A stretch of 49,631 bases of DNA from Candidatus Heimdallarchaeota archaeon (GTDB lineage Archaea > Asgardarchaeota > Heimdallarchaeia > Heimdallarchaeales > Heimdallarchaeaceae), in assembly GCA_019057375.1 (NCBI GenBank), contig DXJF01000019.1, positions 1-49,631 of the forward strand, given 5' to 3'. Positions 814 to 8,738 of this stretch are shown in pieces. The position numbers and the translations under genes were made by a program. The stretch's first letter is position 1. Each line of letters opens with the position of its first letter. The notes under the pieces were generated by a model that had not been told where the DNA came from, searched no databases, and worked only from the letters and a program-made list of their open reading frames with translations.

Positions 814-1608
814 ATGTGGCAGAGAGAAAAGAAACCTGTTGTAGGTGTTTTCGGTTTTTCAGGCTGTGCTGGAGATCAACTTGCTATACTTCACATGGAA
901 GATGAATTAGTTGATTTCTTTACAAGTGCTGATATAAAATTCTTCCATATGGCTCAATCTCATCAAGAGGTTGATCATGTAGATATTGCTCTTGTTGAAG
1001 GTAGTATTAACACTGATAAACAACTTGCAGAACTTAAAGAAATTAGAGAAAAGGCAGACATTGTTGTAGCTCTAGGGACGTGTGCAACTCATGGCGGAAT
1101 TCAATATCTTGGTGATAACGAAAAAGAATTCAAAGAAAGAATGCTTCTTGTATATGGTAAAGATGGAAAGATTCCTAAATTCAGTGAATTAGTTGGAAAT
1201 CCAATACCTGCAAAACCTATTCATAAGTTCATAGAAGTTGATTATTCAATCCCAGGATGTCCTGTTGCTAAGGAAAATTTCATTCCAATATATACCAAAT
1301 TAATTAGTGGCTTAAAACCTTCTAAATATCCTTATCCTGTATGCATTGAATGTAAATTCCAAGGAAATGATTGCTTCTTATTACATGGAAGATATTGTTT
1401 AGGTCCAGTTACAGCTGGAGGTTGTGATGCTTGTTGTCCTACCTTTGGCGTTCCTTGTGTTGGATGCTTTGGAGCATACGAAGGAGCAAACTTTGAATCA
1501 ATGATTGAGAAGTTAATTGAAATCGGTTTAACTGAAGAAGATGCGAAAAGGAAGCTGATGATGTTTGGAGGCGAAGCCACAGAGCTAGCTTTAAAGGGTG
1601 AAAAATGA
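814..1608 (+). CDS. hydD: Group 3b [NiFe] hydrogenase small (delta) subunit
   Basis: GCAGDQ, VEGS, GTCATHGG, IPGCP and a Cys-rich C-terminal half (CIEC...C...CLGP...C...CP...CVGC). The stop overlaps the next start (ATGA). Confidence 0.92.
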   Translation: MWQREKKPVVGVFGFSGCAGDQLAILHMEDELVDFFTSADIKFFHMAQSHQEVDHVDIALVEGSINTDKQLAELKEIREKADIVVALGTCATHGGIQYLGDNEKEFKERMLLVYGKDGKIPKFSELVGNPIPAKPIHKFIEVDYSIPGCPVAKENFIPIYTKLISGLKPSKYPYPVCIECKFQGNDCFLLHGRYCLGPVTAGGCDACCPTFGVPCVGCFGAYEGANFESMIEKLIEIGLTEEDAKRKLMMFGGEATELALKGEK

Positions 1609-2894
1609 TGAGTGAAAAAACAATTAGTGTAGATGTGCTTGCTAGGGTTGAAGGAGATGGAGGAATTCAAGTATATACAAAAGATGGAAAAGTAGACAAA
1701 GTTCTTGTGAATATTTTCGAGGGACCAAGAATGATTGAAGCCCTTGTTAGAGGTAAAACTATTCATGAAAACATTTCTTTAGTAGCTAGAATTTGTGCAA
1801 TTTGTACAGTATCTCATAGAAATGCTTCAATTAGCGCTATTGAAAAGGCTCTCAAAGTAAAAGTTCCAGAAAAAACCCAATTACTTAGACATCTTTGGCA
1901 TTATGCAGAAATTATAGAAAGCCACGTGCTTCATGTATACTATCTTGCACTACCTGATTTCTTTAAACAAGCTTCTGCTATTGCAATGCTTCCTACTCAC
2001 ACAGACACCGTAGTTGAAGCAGTAGTAATGAAGAAATATGGAACTGAATTGATGAAACTACTTCATGGAAGAAAAATCCATGGAGAAAATGCTCTGATTG
2101 GCGGTTTTGGAAGAGTTCCAACTGATGAAGAATTAGATTATTTTGCTGAAAAAGCAGTTGAATTTAAGGAAAAAGTTTCTGCATTCATTGATGTTTGGGG
2201 TACTTTACCAATTCCAGACTATTGTGAAAGAGAAACTCAATTCATGTGCTGCAATCCAGCAAGTGGCAAATTTGGTTTTGAAGGAGAAACAATTCTTATC
2301 TCAACTGGAGAAGAATTTCCTGTTGAGGATTATAAAAAACTGACCAATGAACGAGTTGTTGAACACAGTTATGCTAAGAGATCCAAATACAACGATAAAC
2401 CATTTACTGTTGGCGCATTAGCTAGACTAATTCTTATTGGTGACAGACTTACTGGAGAAGCAAAAGAGAAATTCGATAAATACTATAATGATAAGTGGAA
2501 AGTTAATCCAATTTACAACAATATGGCACAATTAATTGAAACTCTATGGTGTTTTGAACAAATTCCTAGTTTGATAGAACAAATCAAAGCTTTACCAGAT
2601 TCTGATATAGTAACTGATTACGAAATGGATGGTAAAGGAACAGCTGCTGTGGAAGCTCCAAGAGGAACTTTATACCACACATATGATATCAAAGATCGTA
2701 AAATCGAACATGCTGACATTATTACTCCTACTGCACAGTTTTTAGATGATGTTGAAGAATTCATCAAAACAGCTGCAGAGAAACTTTTGGCAGAAAATCA
2801 TCCTGATACTGAGCTTCAGTTAGAAATGATTGCAAGAGCATATGATCCGTGCATAAGTTGTAGCTGTCATATGGTTAAATTGGTGAAACAATAA
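1605..2894 (+). CDS. hydA: Group 3b [NiFe] hydrogenase large (alpha) subunit
   Basis: RVEGDG, L1 motif RICAIC, VEAPRG, and L2 motif DPCISCSCH followed by a short cleavable tail (MVKLVKQ). Confidence 0.95.
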   Translation: MMSEKTISVDVLARVEGDGGIQVYTKDGKVDKVLVNIFEGPRMIEALVRGKTIHENISLVARICAICTVSHRNASISAIEKALKVKVPEKTQLLRHLWHYAEIIESHVLHVYYLALPDFFKQASAIAMLPTHTDTVVEAVVMKKYGTELMKLLHGRKIHGENALIGGFGRVPTDEELDYFAEKAVEFKEKVSAFIDVWGTLPIPDYCERETQFMCCNPASGKFGFEGETILISTGEEFPVEDYKKLTNERVVEHSYAKRSKYNDKPFTVGALARLILIGDRLTGEAKEKFDKYYNDKWKVNPIYNNMAQLIETLWCFEQIPSLIEQIKALPDSDIVTDYEMDGKGTAAVEAPRGTLYHTYDIKDRKIEHADIITPTAQFLDDVEEFIKTAAEKLLAENHPDTELQLEMIARAYDPCISCSCHMVKLVKQ

Positions 2895-3353
2895 GTGTCA
2901 CCTTCCCTTTCTTTTTTTCATAAAATTGAACCTTCTAGAATTGCTTTCTTTTGTTTTGGAAATAGAGATAGAGCAGATGATGCGTTTGGATTGATGGTTT
3001 CAGATAAATTAGTGAAATTTTATCCAAAGAATGTTTTTTCTGAAGAATATGAGGATATTTCTGTTTTTCTTGTAGATATAATAAACAAAGACATCTATGA
3101 TGCTGTAGTGATAATAGATGCTATAAATTATGGAGCTAAACCAGGTTCAGTGTTGGTAACAGCAGATATATCGGAATATATCAGACCCCTAACAAGTCAT
3201 TCAATTCCTTTGCTTCATATAAAAGAATTAGTTGAGATTCAAAAAAAGGAATTCCTGTTTATAGGCGCTCAAGCTAAATCAGTTGAGTTTATGCAAGAAC
3301 CTTCATTGGAAATTCGTGAAGCTGTAGATGAAGTAATGAAACTCCTAATCTAA
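2895..3353 (+). CDS. Hydrogenase maturation protease (HycI/HybD family)
   Basis: GNRDRADDAFG, IIDAINYGAKPG and TSHSIPL motifs. It directly abuts the large subunit gene (GTG start). Confidence 0.88.
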   Translation: MSPSLSFFHKIEPSRIAFFCFGNRDRADDAFGLMVSDKLVKFYPKNVFSEEYEDISVFLVDIINKDIYDAVVIIDAINYGAKPGSVLVTADISEYIRPLTSHSIPLLHIKELVEIQKKEFLFIGAQAKSVEFMQEPSLEIREAVDEVMKLLI

Positions 3354-3368
3354 ACTACTCGAAGGCTT

Positions 3369-4094
3369 CTAATTGAAGAAGTAAAACAAATCGTATTTAT
3401 CTATGAAAATAAAGCTGATAATAAAACAAGTCCAAATTAGTAATCTAAAAAGATCAACCCATCTGAAAGAAATTTTTCTATAATGTGTTCTTCTCTGAAT
3501 TCCAAGACCTTTGAAGTATAAAGATTGAGCCAAGAATTCAGATCTATAGATAATTGACGCAATGAAAACAGCAAATACTCTTGGTAACCATCTCAAAAAA
3601 AACCCCTTAATTTCTCCCCTAATCTTTAAAGTTGTAAAGGTATCTTCAGCATCTTTTGCTATCCTTGGAATCATCATCAAAGCTAGAGAAGGAATCAACG
3701 CAATTTTAGTTGGGATTTTTAGTTTTTCAAAACTTCTAGTCAAGTCTGAAGGATTAACTATAGAAAAGAAAAAGGAAAAGCCTAATCCCCCTACAAGCAA
3801 ACGCATTAAGACACGATACGTAATTTCCCACCCTCCAAAGAGGTAAGTTAACCCACCTAGAAATATCAAAATTGGTAAAAGAGCCCATAAAATGCTTAAG
3901 GATCCTCTAATATTCTTAAAAATTACATTTTCAAAAATGATGAATATTAACAAAAGTGCTAACACCCAGTTTTTGTTTAGAATTAGAAATCCAAATTGAA
4001 TGGATATGATAACAATTCCAACTAATGGATGAATTTGAAGTTTATCAGGTTTATACAAAAAACCATCATAAATTCTCTTTAGCATAAAAGACAT
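3369..4094 (-). CDS. ecfT: ECF transporter transmembrane T component
   Basis: Hydrophobic protein with the EcfT/CbiQ pattern (PSDL..SFEKL.IP, IRG and FKG X-R-G-like motifs). It sits downstream of a tandem ABC ATPase and an S component. Confidence 0.82.
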   Translation of the reverse strand: MSFMLKRIYDGFLYKPDKLQIHPLVGIVIISIQFGFLILNKNWVLALLLIFIIFENVIFKNIRGSLSILWALLPILIFLGGLTYLFGGWEITYRVLMRLLVGGLGFSFFFSIVNPSDLTRSFEKLKIPTKIALIPSLALMMIPRIAKDAEDTFTTLKIRGEIKGFFLRWLPRVFAVFIASIIYRSEFLAQSLYFKGLGIQRRTHYRKISFRWVDLFRLLIWTCFIISFIFIDKYDLFYFFN

Positions 4095-5732
4095 CTATTC
4101 AGCCTCCTTAAGCAAAAAGTTGAATTCTTTAGGATTAAGAATTCTAGGAAGAGAGATACCTGTTTCTTTTTCTAGCTTTAGAATGTATCTTACAGTTTGA
4201 TTAGGTATCAAATTTGTATGTTTTTCCAACTCATATAGAACGTCTCGAGGTGGTCCATTTAGACATATATCTCCATTTTCAATAACAACCAATCTATCCA
4301 AAGATGTTACAATTCTAGGATCATTGGTTGCAAGAATGACCGTGTTTCCATTTTCTTTTGCTGTTTCAACTAATTCAAGTAGAATTCTTCGACCTTTTTT
4401 GTCCAAAGCAATTGTAGGTTCATCCAACAAAATAATATCTTCTTGAAAATAAAATGAGTTTATCAAAGCAAAAAGTCTCCTCTCTCCTTCACTCAAATGA
4501 TAGAGCTTCCTTTTCATCAGTTTTTGCATTTTAAATTTGTTATAAATTTCTATAACTTCCACATTATTTCTAAGTTGTCTTTCTAAATCTCTTAAGGGAG
4601 TAGGTCCAACTAGAAATAGTTTTGCGTTTTCAGGAACATATATGCAATCTTTTTTTCCCTTTCTGACATTCTTGATTTTTCTTCCTTTTATCCAGACTTC
4701 ACCTTTACTTGTTTTTTCAATTCCCAATATGATTTTCATCAAAGTAGATTTACCGCATCCATTTATCCCCATTAATCCTATTGATTCTCCTTTCTTGAAT
4801 TGAAGATCTACATCTTTCAATATCCATTCAGTTTTGTTGTTATATCTAAAATCTACCTTATTCAAAGAAATGGCTGTATCTTTAGATGTTTCATTATTTA
4901 ACTTGAACAGCTCAGAGATATCCACATTTTTAATTCTAGATATTATTCTTTTCAAATCTGCTTGACCTTCAAGAGAAATTATTTTTTCTTTATCTTTGAA
5001 ATCTATCAAAGATAGTTCTGGTGGGTCAATCTCTTCTAGCAAATCTATATTATTAGAGGGATGTCCGTCACTAACTATTTCCCCTTGTTTTAATATAACT
5101 AATCTATCAGCTTTTGTCACAATATAATCAAGACGGTGTTCAAAAGCAATTACTAAATGACCACTATCAGCAAGTTTTCTTAGCAGTTCAACCAGTTTGA
5201 CCTCTGTTTTTGGATCAATCCTTGCAATAGGTTCATCAAGAATAATGATGGGAGGAGCAAAAGCTAAAGCAGATGCTAAAAAAACTCTTTGCAATTCTCC
5301 AGAACTTAGCTCAGGGATTACTCTTCTTCGTAGGGAACTTATTTCAAGTTCAGCTAGGACTTGATTGAGTCTAGATAAAATTTCTTCAGAATCAAGAGCA
5401 AGATTTTCTAATAGAAAAACAATTTCCTCCTCAACTAATAATGATGTTGTAAAGTCACTTGGATATTGAGGAACATATCCTAGTAAACTAACAAGTTTTT
5501 CTCTTGTCAGCTCCTTGAAGGAAATTCCATTATAGGTGATTTCACCAGAAATGTCAGCTTCAGTAAAATTGGGAATTAAAGTCATCAGAATCTGAGCAAG
5601 GGTGCTTTTACCACTCCCACTAGGTCCTGCTATAACAACGAATTCTCCTTTAGATGCTTCAAAATTTATGTGTTTAAGTGCATCCTCATTACTTGTCATA
5701 TACCTGACAGTTAAATCGTTTATTTGAAGCAT
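4095..5732 (-). CDS. ecfA: ECF transporter ATPase with two fused ABC domains
   Basis: Two Walker A motifs (GPSGSGKST, GINGCGKST), signatures LSSGELQR and LSEGERR, Walker B LDEP twice, and no TM segments. Confidence 0.9.
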   Translation of the reverse strand: MLQINDLTVRYMTSNEDALKHINFEASKGEFVVIAGPSGSGKSTLAQILMTLIPNFTEADISGEITYNGISFKELTREKLVSLLGYVPQYPSDFTTSLLVEEEIVFLLENLALDSEEILSRLNQVLAELEISSLRRRVIPELSSGELQRVFLASALAFAPPIIILDEPIARIDPKTEVKLVELLRKLADSGHLVIAFEHRLDYIVTKADRLVILKQGEIVSDGHPSNNIDLLEEIDPPELSLIDFKDKEKIISLEGQADLKRIISRIKNVDISELFKLNNETSKDTAISLNKVDFRYNNKTEWILKDVDLQFKKGESIGLMGINGCGKSTLMKIILGIEKTSKGEVWIKGRKIKNVRKGKKDCIYVPENAKLFLVGPTPLRDLERQLRNNVEVIEIYNKFKMQKLMKRKLYHLSEGERRLFALINSFYFQEDIILLDEPTIALDKKGRRILLELVETAKENGNTVILATNDPRIVTSLDRLVVIENGDICLNGPPRDVLYELEKHTNLIPNQTVRYILKLEKETGISLPRILNPKEFNFLLKEAE

Positions 5733-5764
5733 TAGTACACCAATTAATCTGACTTAAAAATACT

Positions 5765-6565
5765 TTATCCTTCCTCCGTTTCTGGTACCTCTTCCTCAGC
5801 AATTATTTCCTTTTCATATCGTTTTAATATTCCAAGTTCACTAAGATAGGATACTATAGGAATTGCAATAGCTGCACTCAGAACAACTTGAGCAATATTG
5901 AAAGGTATTTCTGATACAGCAGCTACAAGCAAATATTTTAGAACAACTGTTTCATAGAAGAAATAGCCTAAAACCATTAATGATCCTCCTGCTATGCAGG
6001 ATAAAGCCATTTCCCCTTTTTCCTTTAGGAAGAAGAGCACAAGTCCAATTACAATACTTAGAAATAATGCAATTATTAGAAAAGCATATCCTGGCACAGT
6101 AACAGAAAATTCTCTGCTACCATAAAACGCCATTCCAAAAATAAAATCTTGATTGACATAGAATGCAGAAAAACCTACTAAAGTTCCACATAGAGCAGCC
6201 ATAAACAGATACCTGATCCACTTCTTTAATCGGCGGCTATAGTGGAAAATTACTCCTACAACAAATCCTTCTATACCTTTGATGATTAATGTACCTGGCG
6301 CAAAAACGCCATACCCTAAAGCAACATCTGCTAACATCGCTCCCATTCCTCCTGCGATGGCACCTGTGATTGGACCTCCAATTAGAGCAGCTAAATAAAC
6401 AAAAATTTCTCCAATGTTAAAGAACCCATTAGACGTAGGGATAGCTATAAAGAAGATTGATGTAGAAAGAAATACCAATCCCGTAAAAGTAACAATTAAC
6501 GCTATGTTTCTTACTGAATTTACTTCACGAATTAGACTTTGTCGTAAACCTACTTCTTGCTCCAT
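5765..6565 (-). CDS. ECF substrate-binding S component (HmpT/PdxU2-like family), enlarged
   Basis: IPTSNGFFNIGE...GGPITGAIAGGMGAMLAD..LGYGVFAPGTLIIKGIEG...EIPFNIAQ pattern. It is the first gene of an S-A-T operon. Confidence 0.8.
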   Translation of the reverse strand: MEQEVGLRQSLIREVNSVRNIALIVTFTGLVFLSTSIFFIAIPTSNGFFNIGEIFVYLAALIGGPITGAIAGGMGAMLADVALGYGVFAPGTLIIKGIEGFVVGVIFHYSRRLKKWIRYLFMAALCGTLVGFSAFYVNQDFIFGMAFYGSREFSVTVPGYAFLIIALFLSIVIGLVLFFLKEKGEMALSCIAGGSLMVLGYFFYETVVLKYLLVAAVSEIPFNIAQVVLSAAIAIPIVSYLSELGILKRYEKEIIAEEEVPETEEG

Positions 6566-6663
6566 TCATAACACACTCTTTAGGATATTCAAGTTACAAC
6601 TTGAATAATTTATTATAACTGTTTTGGTATATATTTAAGCCATAAAAATTTTTATAAGTAATT

Positions 6664-6719
6664 TTTTCGATAACTTTAGTTTTCTAAAGAATTTTCGATA
6701 ACTTTAGTTTTCTAAAGAA
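6664..6719. repeat. Perfect tandem duplication of a 28-bp unit, each copy containing the palindrome CTTTAG-N4-CTAAAG (operator-like)
   Basis: TTTTCGATAACTTTAGTTTTCTAAAGAA occurs at 6664-6691 and 6692-6719, in the divergent intergenic region between the ECF operon and the Cys-rich ORF. Confidence 0.9.
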
Positions 6720-6764
6720 GTAACTATTAATAAATATGTACTTCCCAGAATCTTGGCGAAACCT

Positions 6765-7085
6765 ATGAAGGCAAGAAATCTATTTATCGGCTTAAGCTTG
6801 GCGGTTCTTTTGATTTTTACAATGCAGCTCGCATCCTCAAATCAAACAATTAGTAATGGTAACGAATATTTCTTATTCTTCAGTTCTGGAGATACTGATC
6901 ATGAGCAAATCCATGAAAGATATCAACTAAACAATCGTTTAGGAGATTGTGATTGTGGGTGTGAATGTGAGTGCGAATGTGAGTGCAATTGTGAGTGCAA
7001 TTGTGATAATGTTTGTGATCAAATACTAGACAGAATTAGAGACAGAATTAAAGACAAATTACAAGATGGAAGTTGTAAAGATTAG
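6765..7085 (+). CDS. Small secreted Cys-rich protein with a (Cys-X)10 tract
   Basis: Signal-peptide-like start MKARNLFIGLSLAVLLIFTMQLASS (ATG 6765; the ORF track starts at TTG 6753). Contains CDCGCECECECECNCECNC and a C-terminal DRIRDRIKDKLQDGSC. A T-rich tract follows. Confidence 0.7.
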   Translation: MKARNLFIGLSLAVLLIFTMQLASSNQTISNGNEYFLFFSSGDTDHEQIHERYQLNNRLGDCDCGCECECECECNCECNCDNVCDQILDRIRDRIKDKLQDGSCKD

Positions 7086-7151
7086 AATATAATCCATCTT
7101 TTGTGTTTTTTTATAATTTTATACTTATTTATACTATATAATTGTAGGTTT

Positions 7152-8495
7152 TTAAAGAAAATCTATAAGATTTCTCATTTTTTCCAAGGTTTCAAATCCT
7201 TTCTTTGTAACTTTGAACTCCTTAATTTTGGTGTTTTGTCCAAATAACACTATCAAGCCTTTCTCTTGAAGTTCATTCAGATGCTGATAAATAGATTGTT
7301 TAGATTTAGCTCGTCCTAAGGATTCCCACAGAGAAATTCCATAAGTCGCTTTGCCTTCTGAAATAAGATTCAATATCTCAAATTTAGTTGTTGAACTTTC
7401 AGACAAACCCCAAACAACTTTTCTTTTATCTCTTAATTGAGAGGCATAGATATTGAGTGCATTAAAGCCAGATCCAGAAAGAATCGCAACACTATTTGGG
7501 GGATTTATTTCTTCTTCTTTAATCAGCTCATCAGCAGCTACTAAAACAGAAGCTGAAGCTGGTTCAATAAACAATCCTTCTTTTCTGGAAAGATTCAAAG
7601 CTTTCTCAATCATCTGTTGAGCATCAATTTCTATCTCTTTTCCTTTAGAAAACTTAATTGTCTCTCGTACTTCCTCTAAAAGAAAAGGTTGCTCTATTTC
7701 TAAGGATTCAGCCAAGTAAGCACTCTTTGTTTTCTCTAAAGATATTGCATAAATTCTGGGGAGTTCTTCTATCCATCCTGAAGCAAGTGCATCTTCTAGA
7801 CCCCTATAAATTGAATATATAAGAGATCCAGATCCTCTAGGTATAATTAATGCATCAAAAAACTCTTTTTGTAAAGCTATTTCTAAGCCTAAGGTTTTTT
7901 GACCTTCAATAGCTAAAATATTGTTTTCAGGAGTTGCTAAATAGGCATTTACTGCTTTACTAAGCCTTTTCGCTTCAGCAATAGATTCTTCAACAGAATC
8001 GCCCATTTCGATTACGTTACTTCCATAAACCTTCATTTGTTCAATTTTAGAAAGTTCTAAATTCTGAGGAATTACATTTTGAGATTTTATTCCAGCTTTT
8101 GCTGCATAAGCAGATAAACTGATGCCAAAAGAGCCTGTACTTGCGCCAATTACTTGGGAGCTTTTATTCTTAACAGCATCTGAAATTATCAGAGAACTAG
8201 CTCTATCTCTAAAGGATCCAGTAGGATTTCTGAATTCTAGCTTCAAACTTAAATCAGCAAGATTCTCTATATTCTTAACTTCAATAAGTGGTGTGTTACC
8301 CTCATACAAAGAAATAGGCTTTGCATATTCTGGAAGAAAATCTCTAAAAGACCACATAGATGTGAGAGAAATATCAGATTTAGATGGACCTCGAATTGGA
8401 GTTACAGATAGCAGTTTCTCACAAGTAGGACAACGTAATGAATCCCCTATAAGTAAACTTCCGCACTCTTGACAACTATCTGGTTTTCTCCACAT
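7152..8495 (-). CDS. Zn-ribbon + threonine-synthase-like (PLP fold type II) domain + C-terminal winged-helix domain; catalytic Lys replaced by Arg
   Basis: N-terminal CQEC...CPTC, SLYEGNTPL, NPTGSFRDR, EGQKT, IPRGSGS, EGLFIEPASA. The C-terminus (TKFEILNLIS...SKQSIYQHLNELQEKGLI...VTKKG) has the ArsR/PadR-type wHTH pattern. Confidence 0.85.
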   Translation of the reverse strand: MWRKPDSCQECGSLLIGDSLRCPTCEKLLSVTPIRGPSKSDISLTSMWSFRDFLPEYAKPISLYEGNTPLIEVKNIENLADLSLKLEFRNPTGSFRDRASSLIISDAVKNKSSQVIGASTGSFGISLSAYAAKAGIKSQNVIPQNLELSKIEQMKVYGSNVIEMGDSVEESIAEAKRLSKAVNAYLATPENNILAIEGQKTLGLEIALQKEFFDALIIPRGSGSLIYSIYRGLEDALASGWIEELPRIYAISLEKTKSAYLAESLEIEQPFLLEEVRETIKFSKGKEIEIDAQQMIEKALNLSRKEGLFIEPASASVLVAADELIKEEEINPPNSVAILSGSGFNALNIYASQLRDKRKVVWGLSESSTTKFEILNLISEGKATYGISLWESLGRAKSKQSIYQHLNELQEKGLIVLFGQNTKIKEFKVTKKGFETLEKMRNLIDFL

Positions 8496-8543: not shown

Positions 8544-8738
8544 TCAGACAATCCCGGATGGTTCTTCATCTTTGTCTATTAGTATCTCGCATGAACATAG
8601 ATCATCAAAAATTGATTCAATTTGAAGAGATAAAGGATCTTCAAAATCCAAAAAAAAGTTCATATCTTTCTTTTCTAAGTTGTTGAATAACTGTATGAGT
8701 ATATCTCTTTCTTGTTTTGAATTTACTACAATGTGCAT
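8544..8738 (-). CDS. Small acidic hypothetical protein
   Basis: 64-aa ATG ORF in otherwise unoccupied space, co-oriented upstream of the ThrC-like fusion. No motif recognised. Confidence 0.5.
   Translation of the reverse strand: MHIVVNSKQERDILIQLFNNLEKKDMNFFLDFEDPLSLQIESIFDDLCSCEILIDKDEEPSGIV

Follow-up and report, generated by a model that had tools for sequence, protein, structure and literature searches.

A threonine synthase-like winged-helix protein is very probably the switch of a neighbouring vitamin B6 importer in a Heimdallarchaeaceae archaeon

What does a protein that resembles threonine synthase, yet ends in a winged helix, do beside the genes of a vitamin importer? The question is raised by contig DXJF01000019.1 of a Candidatus Heimdallarchaeota archaeon (GCA_019057375.1), whose 49,631 nucleotides we refer to as the window. 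The closest protein matches of the window are labelled Heimdallarchaeaceae, and its genome comprises 3.47 Mb, is 89% complete and has a G+C content of 33%. Our analysis suggests that the threonine synthase-like protein very probably acts as the switch of the vitamin B6 importer encoded next to it. We assign a probability of roughly three in four to a reading in which a dimeric B6 sensor-regulator with the threonine synthase (ThrC) fold and a PadR-like winged helix-turn-helix (wHTH) domain controls an energy-coupling factor (ECF) importer of the PdxU/HmpT family through a palindrome at positions 6588-6605. The protein-coding genes at the center of this reading are:

7152-8495, minus strand: ThrC-like pseudoenzyme with winged helix, candidate B6-responsive regulator, 447 aa
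5765-6565, minus strand: ecfS, S component of an ECF importer, PdxU/HmpT family (PF07155, COG4720), C-terminally extended, 266 aa
4095-5732, minus strand: fused EcfA-EcfA' ATPase, 545 aa, with two ABC_tran domains
3369-4094, minus strand: probable EcfT transmembrane component, 241 aa

The 447-aa protein matches the PALP family with 187.7 bits, and its AlphaFold2 model (mean predicted local distance difference test score, pLDDT, of 88.4) retrieves threonine synthases as the top structures in Foldseek, with target-normalised TM-scores of 0.78-0.81, as expected of a fold-type II ThrC domain. Matches to HTH_45 and PadR at residues 374-445 are weak and fall under the Pfam cut-offs (18.8 bits for PF03551 against a cut-off of 27); the model shows three helices, two strands and a further helix at residues 366-446, and precomputed annotation records PF03551 for most homologues. 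The NCBIfam model NF004170 ("threonine synthase") matches the fusion from end to end with 280 bits against a cut-off of 421, a cut-off that none of 14 control genomes reached. The parts of the protein can be laid out as follows:

Residues ~8-25: Zn ribbon
Residues 47-354 (nucleotides 7434-8357): ThrC-fold sensor
Residues 357-366: disordered linker
Residues 366-446 (nucleotides 7155-7400): PadR-like wHTH
8208-8210, minus strand: codon of Arg96, at the position of the pyridoxal 5'-phosphate (PLP) Schiff-base lysine, located by aligning the translation to 2ZSJ and 1UIM

The segment NPTGSFRDR aligns to NPTGSFKDR of solved threonine synthases, placing Arg96 where the Schiff-base lysine would be (Lys61 in Thermus thermophilus ThrC). 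Arginine occupies this site in every listed homologue, down to ~40% identity, in which a motif search located it, and the ordinary ThrCs in the same list have lysine there. Across 63 family members the position is R in 51, I in 4, K in 3, L in 3, S in 1 and N in 1, with lysine kept in one clade. With arginine in place of lysine, any binding of PLP would be non-covalent. The other cofactor contacts are retained: the stacking aromatic (F/Y95), the phosphate-loop glycines (G221 and G223) and the residue facing the ring nitrogen (T/S340) are present in 63/63 members, and the E311-P312-x-S314 segment in at least 58. Judged by these residues, the 447-aa protein is a putative non-catalytic threonine synthase that has retained its cofactor pocket. 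The preliminary description of this locus had called the gene a fusion of a PLP pseudoenzyme and a wHTH, and the lysine-to-arginine exchange and the C-terminal winged helix agree with that description.

The pocket also bears on what the protein might sense. Its ThrC ancestry, together with a carboxylate-binding S-T-G segment that is largely retained, would suit a sensor of an amino-acid-pathway metabolite, such as O-phosphohomoserine or threonine, that tunes cofactor supply only indirectly. We hold this to be extremely improbable. T88, N154, S155 and R160 of T. thermophilus ThrC, which we take from the 1V7C work to bind the phosphate of O-phosphohomoserine, correspond to F, T, P and A in the 447-aa protein, and nearly all of the 63 members have hydrophobic or small residues at the equivalent positions (threonine at 88 remains in two). 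Moreover, both recurring neighbors of the family are B6 genes rather than threonine genes, and two ordinary ThrC paralogues are kept elsewhere in the genome.

A two-copy model of the protein forms a symmetric interface through the enzyme fold, with a homodimer score of 0.80 compared to 0.01 for the best of three controls; contact agreement between runs was at least 50%, and partner pLDDT at least 80. Of proteins solved as pairs, 20 of 30 reached the mark used to call a dimer; of those solved as single chains, 1 of 23 did. Given the solved dimers of ThrC, this predicted homodimer may reflect resemblance to those structures.

Gene neighborhoods and genome content link the protein to vitamin B6. 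We fetched ~20 kb around 60 family members across the phylum, clustered the neighboring genes, and counted 58 full-length Asgard members. A PF07155 S component lies no more than three genes away in 31 of the 58, with all neighboring S components that were checked matching PF07155 at 96-132 bits, and pdxS-pdxT, identified through Pfam, adjoin 11. The regulator family forms one clade separate from true ThrCs (SH-aLRT, the Shimodaira-Hasegawa-like approximate likelihood ratio, of 100), and adjacency to pdxS changes at least three times on its tree. Within the genus of the window the two targets alternate in one slot, which holds ecfS-ecfAA'-ecfT in genomes without PdxS and pdxS-pdxT in two genomes, G019 and G027. 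Outside this genus, ecfA and ecfT mostly do not adjoin the S gene. In a different phylum, the Bathyarchaeia carry a large branch of the family that retains the lysine, and a PF07155 gene directly follows the regulator gene in two of the three Bathyarchaeia proteins looked up.

Both neighbors have known ties to the vitamin: PdxU and PdxU2/HmpT are the B6 transporters of PF07155 (PMC9997740), and the regulon of bacterial PdxR includes pdxST, pdxK and pdxU (PMC5320631). PdxS, PdxT and PdxJ were not detected in the 89%-complete window genome, and PdxS is present in 4 of 30 genomes of its family. Overall, gene context strongly supports the fusion protein as a candidate regulator tied to vitamin B6 supply. 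The earlier suggestion of a functional analogue of PdxR thus gained ground from the PF07155 and pdxST neighbors, from the pocket kept without its lysine and from the pdx genes that were not detected; the synteny that the same description had proposed to look for recurs across Asgard genomes and in Bathyarchaeia.

The importer genes fit this picture. The S component matches PF07155 with 88.7 bits (cut-off 26.7), and its sole significant match among solved structures is the S subunit of Lactobacillus brevis HmpT (4HZU_S, E 1.3e-8). The fused protein at 4095-5732 supplies the two EcfA-type ATP-binding cassette (ABC) ATPase domains that an ECF transporter requires; its best NCBIfam matches are ECF_ATPase_1 and ECF_ATPase_2, whose 273 and 253 bits lie under the NCBI equivalog cut-offs. 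The EcfT candidate matches CbiQ (PF02361) weakly (20.7 bits, E 3.7e-4, cut-off 25), and its position and conservation fit EcfT, with the S-AA'-T gene order kept in relatives. By gene content and order, positions 3369-6565 of the minus strand are a dedicated ECF importer operon, in the order S, fused A-A', probable T, at the place where the preliminary description had put it. From the alternation with pdxST beside one regulator, we infer that the S component carries a B6 vitamer.

Where would such a regulator act? The preliminary description had pointed to a doubled CTTTAG-N4-CTAAAG palindrome; our comparisons point to another element of the same divergent region:

Upstream of ecfS, 200 bp: divergent region between ecfS and a plus-strand Cys-rich open reading frame (ORF)
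6586-6607, no strand: perfect 10+10 palindrome TATTCAAGTT-AC-AACTTGAATA, best operator candidate, between the ecfS TATA box and start codon
6588-6605: palindrome TTCAAGTT-N2-AACTTGAA, containing CAAGTT-N2-AACTTG
6608-6620, minus strand: probable BRE/TATA element (transcription factor B recognition element and TATA box) of the ecfS promoter, AGTTATAATAAAT on the minus strand

The ATG of ecfS lies at 6565, which puts the candidate palindrome between the start codon and the probable TATA box at 6608-6620. This box would be the promoter element of ecfS: the ACCAAAAnAGTTATA block is conserved in seven species, and a ACAGTTATAATA box also precedes the regulator gene. In its 16-base form, TTCAAGTT-NN-AACTTGAA occurs once in the 3.47-Mb genome, where 0.01 occurrences would be expected. 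We aligned the divergent region of the seven species, whose regulators are 61-93% identical, and found three conserved islands, namely the TATA box of the Cys-rich ORF, the adjoining CTTTAG-type palindrome, and a block before ecfS. The third island consists of ACCAAAAnAGTTATA followed by TAT(T/A)CAAGTT-N2-AACTTGAATA, and stands directly before ecfS, or before pdxS in G019. Of the three, only this CAAGTT-type element was found beyond the genus: CAAGTT-N2-AACTTG or TAAGTT-N2-AACTTA, often in two tandem copies, precedes ecfS and pdxS in lineages across the Asgard archaea, and in Bathyarchaeia the palindrome takes the form TAGTT-N2-AACTA.

Counting AAGTT-NN-AACTT with up to one mismatch, we found 51 occurrences in the 7,176 nt that precede ecfS or pdxS, compared to 90 in the 1.04 Mb that make up the rest of the loci. 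With 150 nt taken before each target, the densities are 7.1 per kb and 0.086 per kb, respectively, an 82-fold difference, and 35 of 46 target promoters carry the motif. At the same stringency, none was found in about ten pdxS promoters from families in which no fusion was found (f3, f4, f17 and one f20 genus). These data suggest that the fusion protein most likely acts at the CAAGTT-type palindrome rather than at the CTTTAG palindrome. A scan of the genome for TTCAAGTT-NN-AACTTGAA with up to three mismatches found no further member of the regulon; the three 2-mismatch sites and one 3-mismatch site that we examined all lie inside ORFs and were set aside as background.

The same data weigh on whether the palindrome and the protein belong together at all. 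Another factor might bind the CAAGTT palindrome, with the ThrC-like protein serving in B6 storage, homeostasis or salvage and its winged helix in some other role. The link between protein and DNA is drawn here from sequence, and the PadR and HTH_45 matches of the window's protein stay under the Pfam cut-offs, as this alternative would have it. It is nonetheless very unlikely, as the motif is found at pdxS and ecfS promoters in company with the fusion and is absent from the pdxS promoters checked where no fusion was found, regulator and target are often divergent around the motif, the homologues carry the PF03551 annotation, and the modeled dimer would suit a palindromic site.

Related elements occur in more distant genomes. 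Two Bathyarchaeia loci (L128:6414-6515 and L126:6800-6866), in which the regulator and a PF07155 gene form a pair and the Schiff-base lysine is kept, show two tandem TATAGTT-N2-AACTA palindromes just before the S gene. In locus L124 (G307:C7:638400-641400), TATATAGG...CCTATAT-type palindromes stand before pdxS, as does a divergent gene that, read from the DNA, seemingly encodes Cys pairs. At E 1e-40 that genome did not score as carrying the fusion; a remoter member of the family may be present there, with an operator of a variant type, as in L064, L066 and L095.

The CTTTAG palindrome itself lies next to another gene:

6664-6719: perfect 28-bp tandem duplication (6664-6691 and 6692-6719), each unit with one CTTTAG-N4-CTAAAG
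6674-6689 and 6702-6717: CTTTAGTTTTCTAAAG, within the 28-nt repeat units
6766-7085, plus strand: small secreted Cys-rich protein with a signal-peptide-like N-terminus, promoter at ~6664-6740

The doubling described earlier is thus real. Several features would recommend the site as the one through which the same regulator acts on the importer, by way of the pair at 6674-6717: the palindrome is perfect and, at ~110-150 nt upstream of ecfS, falls within the divergent region, and the genus keeps it while its flanks drift, including upstream of pdxS in G019. Its two exact copies are also the only ones in the 3.47-Mb genome, where base composition predicts 0.4. We nevertheless consider its use as the importer's operator distinctly unlikely. 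Six related species have a single copy and lack the 28 bp that the window has inserted relative to them, so the doubling in the window is a recent 28-bp duplication. We saw the palindrome only in the window's genus; the target promoters that we read in other lineages do not show it, and its arms are unlike the half-sites common across the phylum. As a regulon motif it also fails: exact copies are confined to this pair, and variants with N3 or N5 spacing are scattered.

Its position ties it to the Cys-rich ORF, which sits within the locus, between the repeat and the regulator gene. In every member of the genus the palindrome stands 5-8 nt upstream of the TATA box of this ORF, and in G018, in which the ORF adjoins neither ecfS nor pdxS, a degenerate copy (ACTTCAATTTTCTAAAG), mutated in one arm, keeps the same position. 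The Cys-rich protein contains a (Cys-X)n tract, CDCGCECECECECNCECNCD, and a tail motif RDRIxDKLQDGSC. Homologues of 104-134 aa with a variable Cys/Asp tract occur genus-wide, always just downstream of the regulator gene and convergent with it, and each has the palindrome and then a TATA box upstream. The protein matched no Pfam or NCBIfam model, has no paralogue in the genome, and shows no sign of belonging to the B6 module. Most simply, the CTTTAG palindrome would be a cis-element of the promoter of the Cys-rich ORF, bound by another factor and not a B6 operator, although the B6 regulator may contact it as well. For these reasons we have replaced the CTTTAG site of the preliminary description by the palindrome at 6588-6605 as the candidate operator.

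Our preferred reading, control of the importer by the ThrC-like protein at 6588-6605, can be put as a mechanism. The 447-aa protein would be a one-component transcription regulator and not an enzyme. A B6 vitamer, most likely PLP, would occupy the retained cofactor pocket of the dimeric, non-catalytic ThrC-fold domain, and would thereby determine how tightly the two C-terminal PadR-like winged helices bind TTCAAGTT-N2-AACTTGAA. PLP is the obvious candidate effector by analogy with PdxR. With the palindrome placed between the ecfS start and its TATA box, a repressor bound there would, in an archaeon, keep the transcription machinery from assembling. The dimer, once bound, would do so and turn the importer off as long as B6 is abundant; when B6 is scarce, the importer would be expressed. 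The ecfS-ecfAA'-ecfT operon would then be the B6 supply line of an organism that seemingly cannot make the vitamin. We infer four elements of this scheme, namely the identity of the effector, repression over activation, binding of the protein to the palindrome, and the vitamer transported.

Several observations weigh against this reading. One concerns the substrate. HmpT of L. brevis carries pyridoxamine (PMC4860826), and the pocket of the window's S component departs from it: of E41, H84, Q87 and Y120 of HmpT, the glutamate is kept, whereas H84 is replaced by K, Q87 by E and Y120 by F, and the positions of N140 and Q143 lie beyond the alignable region. At the HmpT pocket positions, E/D53, K96 and E99 are invariant in 34 Asgard homologues. 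Given these exchanges, the vitamer may not be pyridoxamine. A second concerns metabolism. No PF08543 (PdxK-type) kinase was found in the window genome, and the route from an imported unphosphorylated vitamer to PLP therefore has a gap; either there is an unrecognized B6 kinase or a phosphorylated vitamer is imported. Incompleteness of the genome, moreover, leaves the absence of pdx genes unproven. The remainder concern regulation: 16 of the 58 regulator genes have neither target nearby, and 11 of the 46 target promoters lack the motif at up to one mismatch, some lineages having TATAGG-type variants instead. Within the window, the 10-base core with one mismatch gives 6 matches where 7 are expected, which is not above chance, so the case rests on the long palindrome and its conservation across genomes. 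These genomes are related, and are therefore non-independent samples.

The kinase gap extends beyond the window. PF08543 (PdxK/ThiD-type) gave three weak matches in 30 genomes of the window's family, and was found in 135 of 135 genomes of one large Asgard family; in the former, a salvage kinase for B6 and thiamine is the missing piece. A 317-aa neighbor of ecfS in one Asgard lineage, considered as a novel pyridoxal kinase, was rejected as a DnaJ-type zinc-finger protein. Similarly, the MCM/GINS, glycerate-kinase-like and TIM neighbors of some homologues were assigned to conserved housekeeping synteny outside the module. A broader proposal takes up the same gap: the family, spanning Asgard archaea and Bathyarchaeia, would be the missing archaeal B6 regulator, and the importer might take up pyridoxal or PLP itself, since an invariant pocket lysine replaces the histidine of HmpT and family genomes lack a PdxK-type kinase. 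We regard this extension as speculative and, on balance, unlikely.

Some features of the locus stand beside these questions. PF07155 hits the S component a second time, partially, with profile positions 77-170 aligning at about residues 160-241, which suggests a partial internal duplication with ~8 hydrophobic segments; the component has 266 aa, compared to 166-215 aa in HmpT and many Asgard homologues. On the plus strand, a [NiFe] hydrogenase large subunit and a HycI-type maturation protease (1605-3353) abut the ECF operon, a neighborhood kept within the family whichever B6 gene set is present. On the other side, the regulator gene is directly preceded, on its own strand, by a 64-aa ORF (8544-8738, minus strand). 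This ORF holds its position in 12 of 12 related loci compared, at 48-98% identity, matches no family, and is separated from the regulator gene by a TATA-like box.

How does the ThrC-like regulator compare with known systems? The bacterial PdxR/MocR proteins join a GntR wHTH to a fold-type I, aminotransferase-like PLP domain. The archaeal fusion resembles them as a predicted one-component, dimeric regulator whose sensor is a PLP-enzyme fold no longer enzymatic and whose target promoters carry repeated boxes. Its predicted regulon, pdxST together with a PF07155 transporter, drawn from gene context and a common promoter palindrome, also resembles that of PdxR (PMC5320631). It differs in that the sensor is of fold-type II, the wHTH is C-terminal and PadR/HTH_45-like rather than N-terminal and GntR-like, and most members have replaced the Schiff-base lysine that MocR proteins keep. 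The relationship is analogy, not homology, and the MocR/PdxR family is reported to be absent from Archaea (PMC5320631).

With ThrC (1UIM, 2ZSJ and 6NMX) the fusion shares the fold, the archaeal-type N-terminal Zn ribbon, the cofactor-pocket residues and, in the model, the dimer interface. Unlike ThrC, it has arginine for the catalytic lysine, has lost the substrate-phosphate site, has gained an 80-aa winged helix, and neighbors B6 rather than threonine genes. In Archaea, ThiR and RbkR each combine an enzyme domain of a vitamin pathway with a DNA-binding domain and control the synthesis and uptake genes of that vitamin, thiamine and riboflavin, respectively. The ThrC-like fusion follows this design principle, with another enzyme fold and another DNA-binding domain. 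HmpT works with a shared ECF module, and the window's importer has a dedicated S-AA'-T operon. The S component otherwise resembles HmpT/PdxU2 (4HZU; PMC4860826) in its PF07155 membership and conserved Glu41; unlike HmpT (166 aa), it has Lys, Glu and Phe for His84, Gln87 and Tyr120, the first two exchanges being invariant in the Asgard subfamily.

The literature that we could search describes neither an archaeal B6 regulator nor a ThrC-wHTH fusion, and a 2025 preprint on Asgard archaea calls regulation of the pdxST pathway poorly characterised. New here are the corrected operator, the swap of ecfS and pdxST within one genus, the dedicated S-AA'-T operon, and the missing-kinase gap. Databases name the homologues "threonine synthase", a mislabel that distorts metabolic reconstructions of Asgard and Bathyarchaeia genomes. 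The family would also offer a handle on the B6 dependence of Asgard archaea, including the cultured Promethearchaeum syntrophicum and Lokiarchaeum ossiferum, both of which carry it, and this dependence bears on the vitamin exchanges behind their syntrophic life. If true, our reading would make the fusion a case of convergent evolution, built independently of PdxR, in which two different PLP-enzyme folds were recruited as sensors of one regulon.

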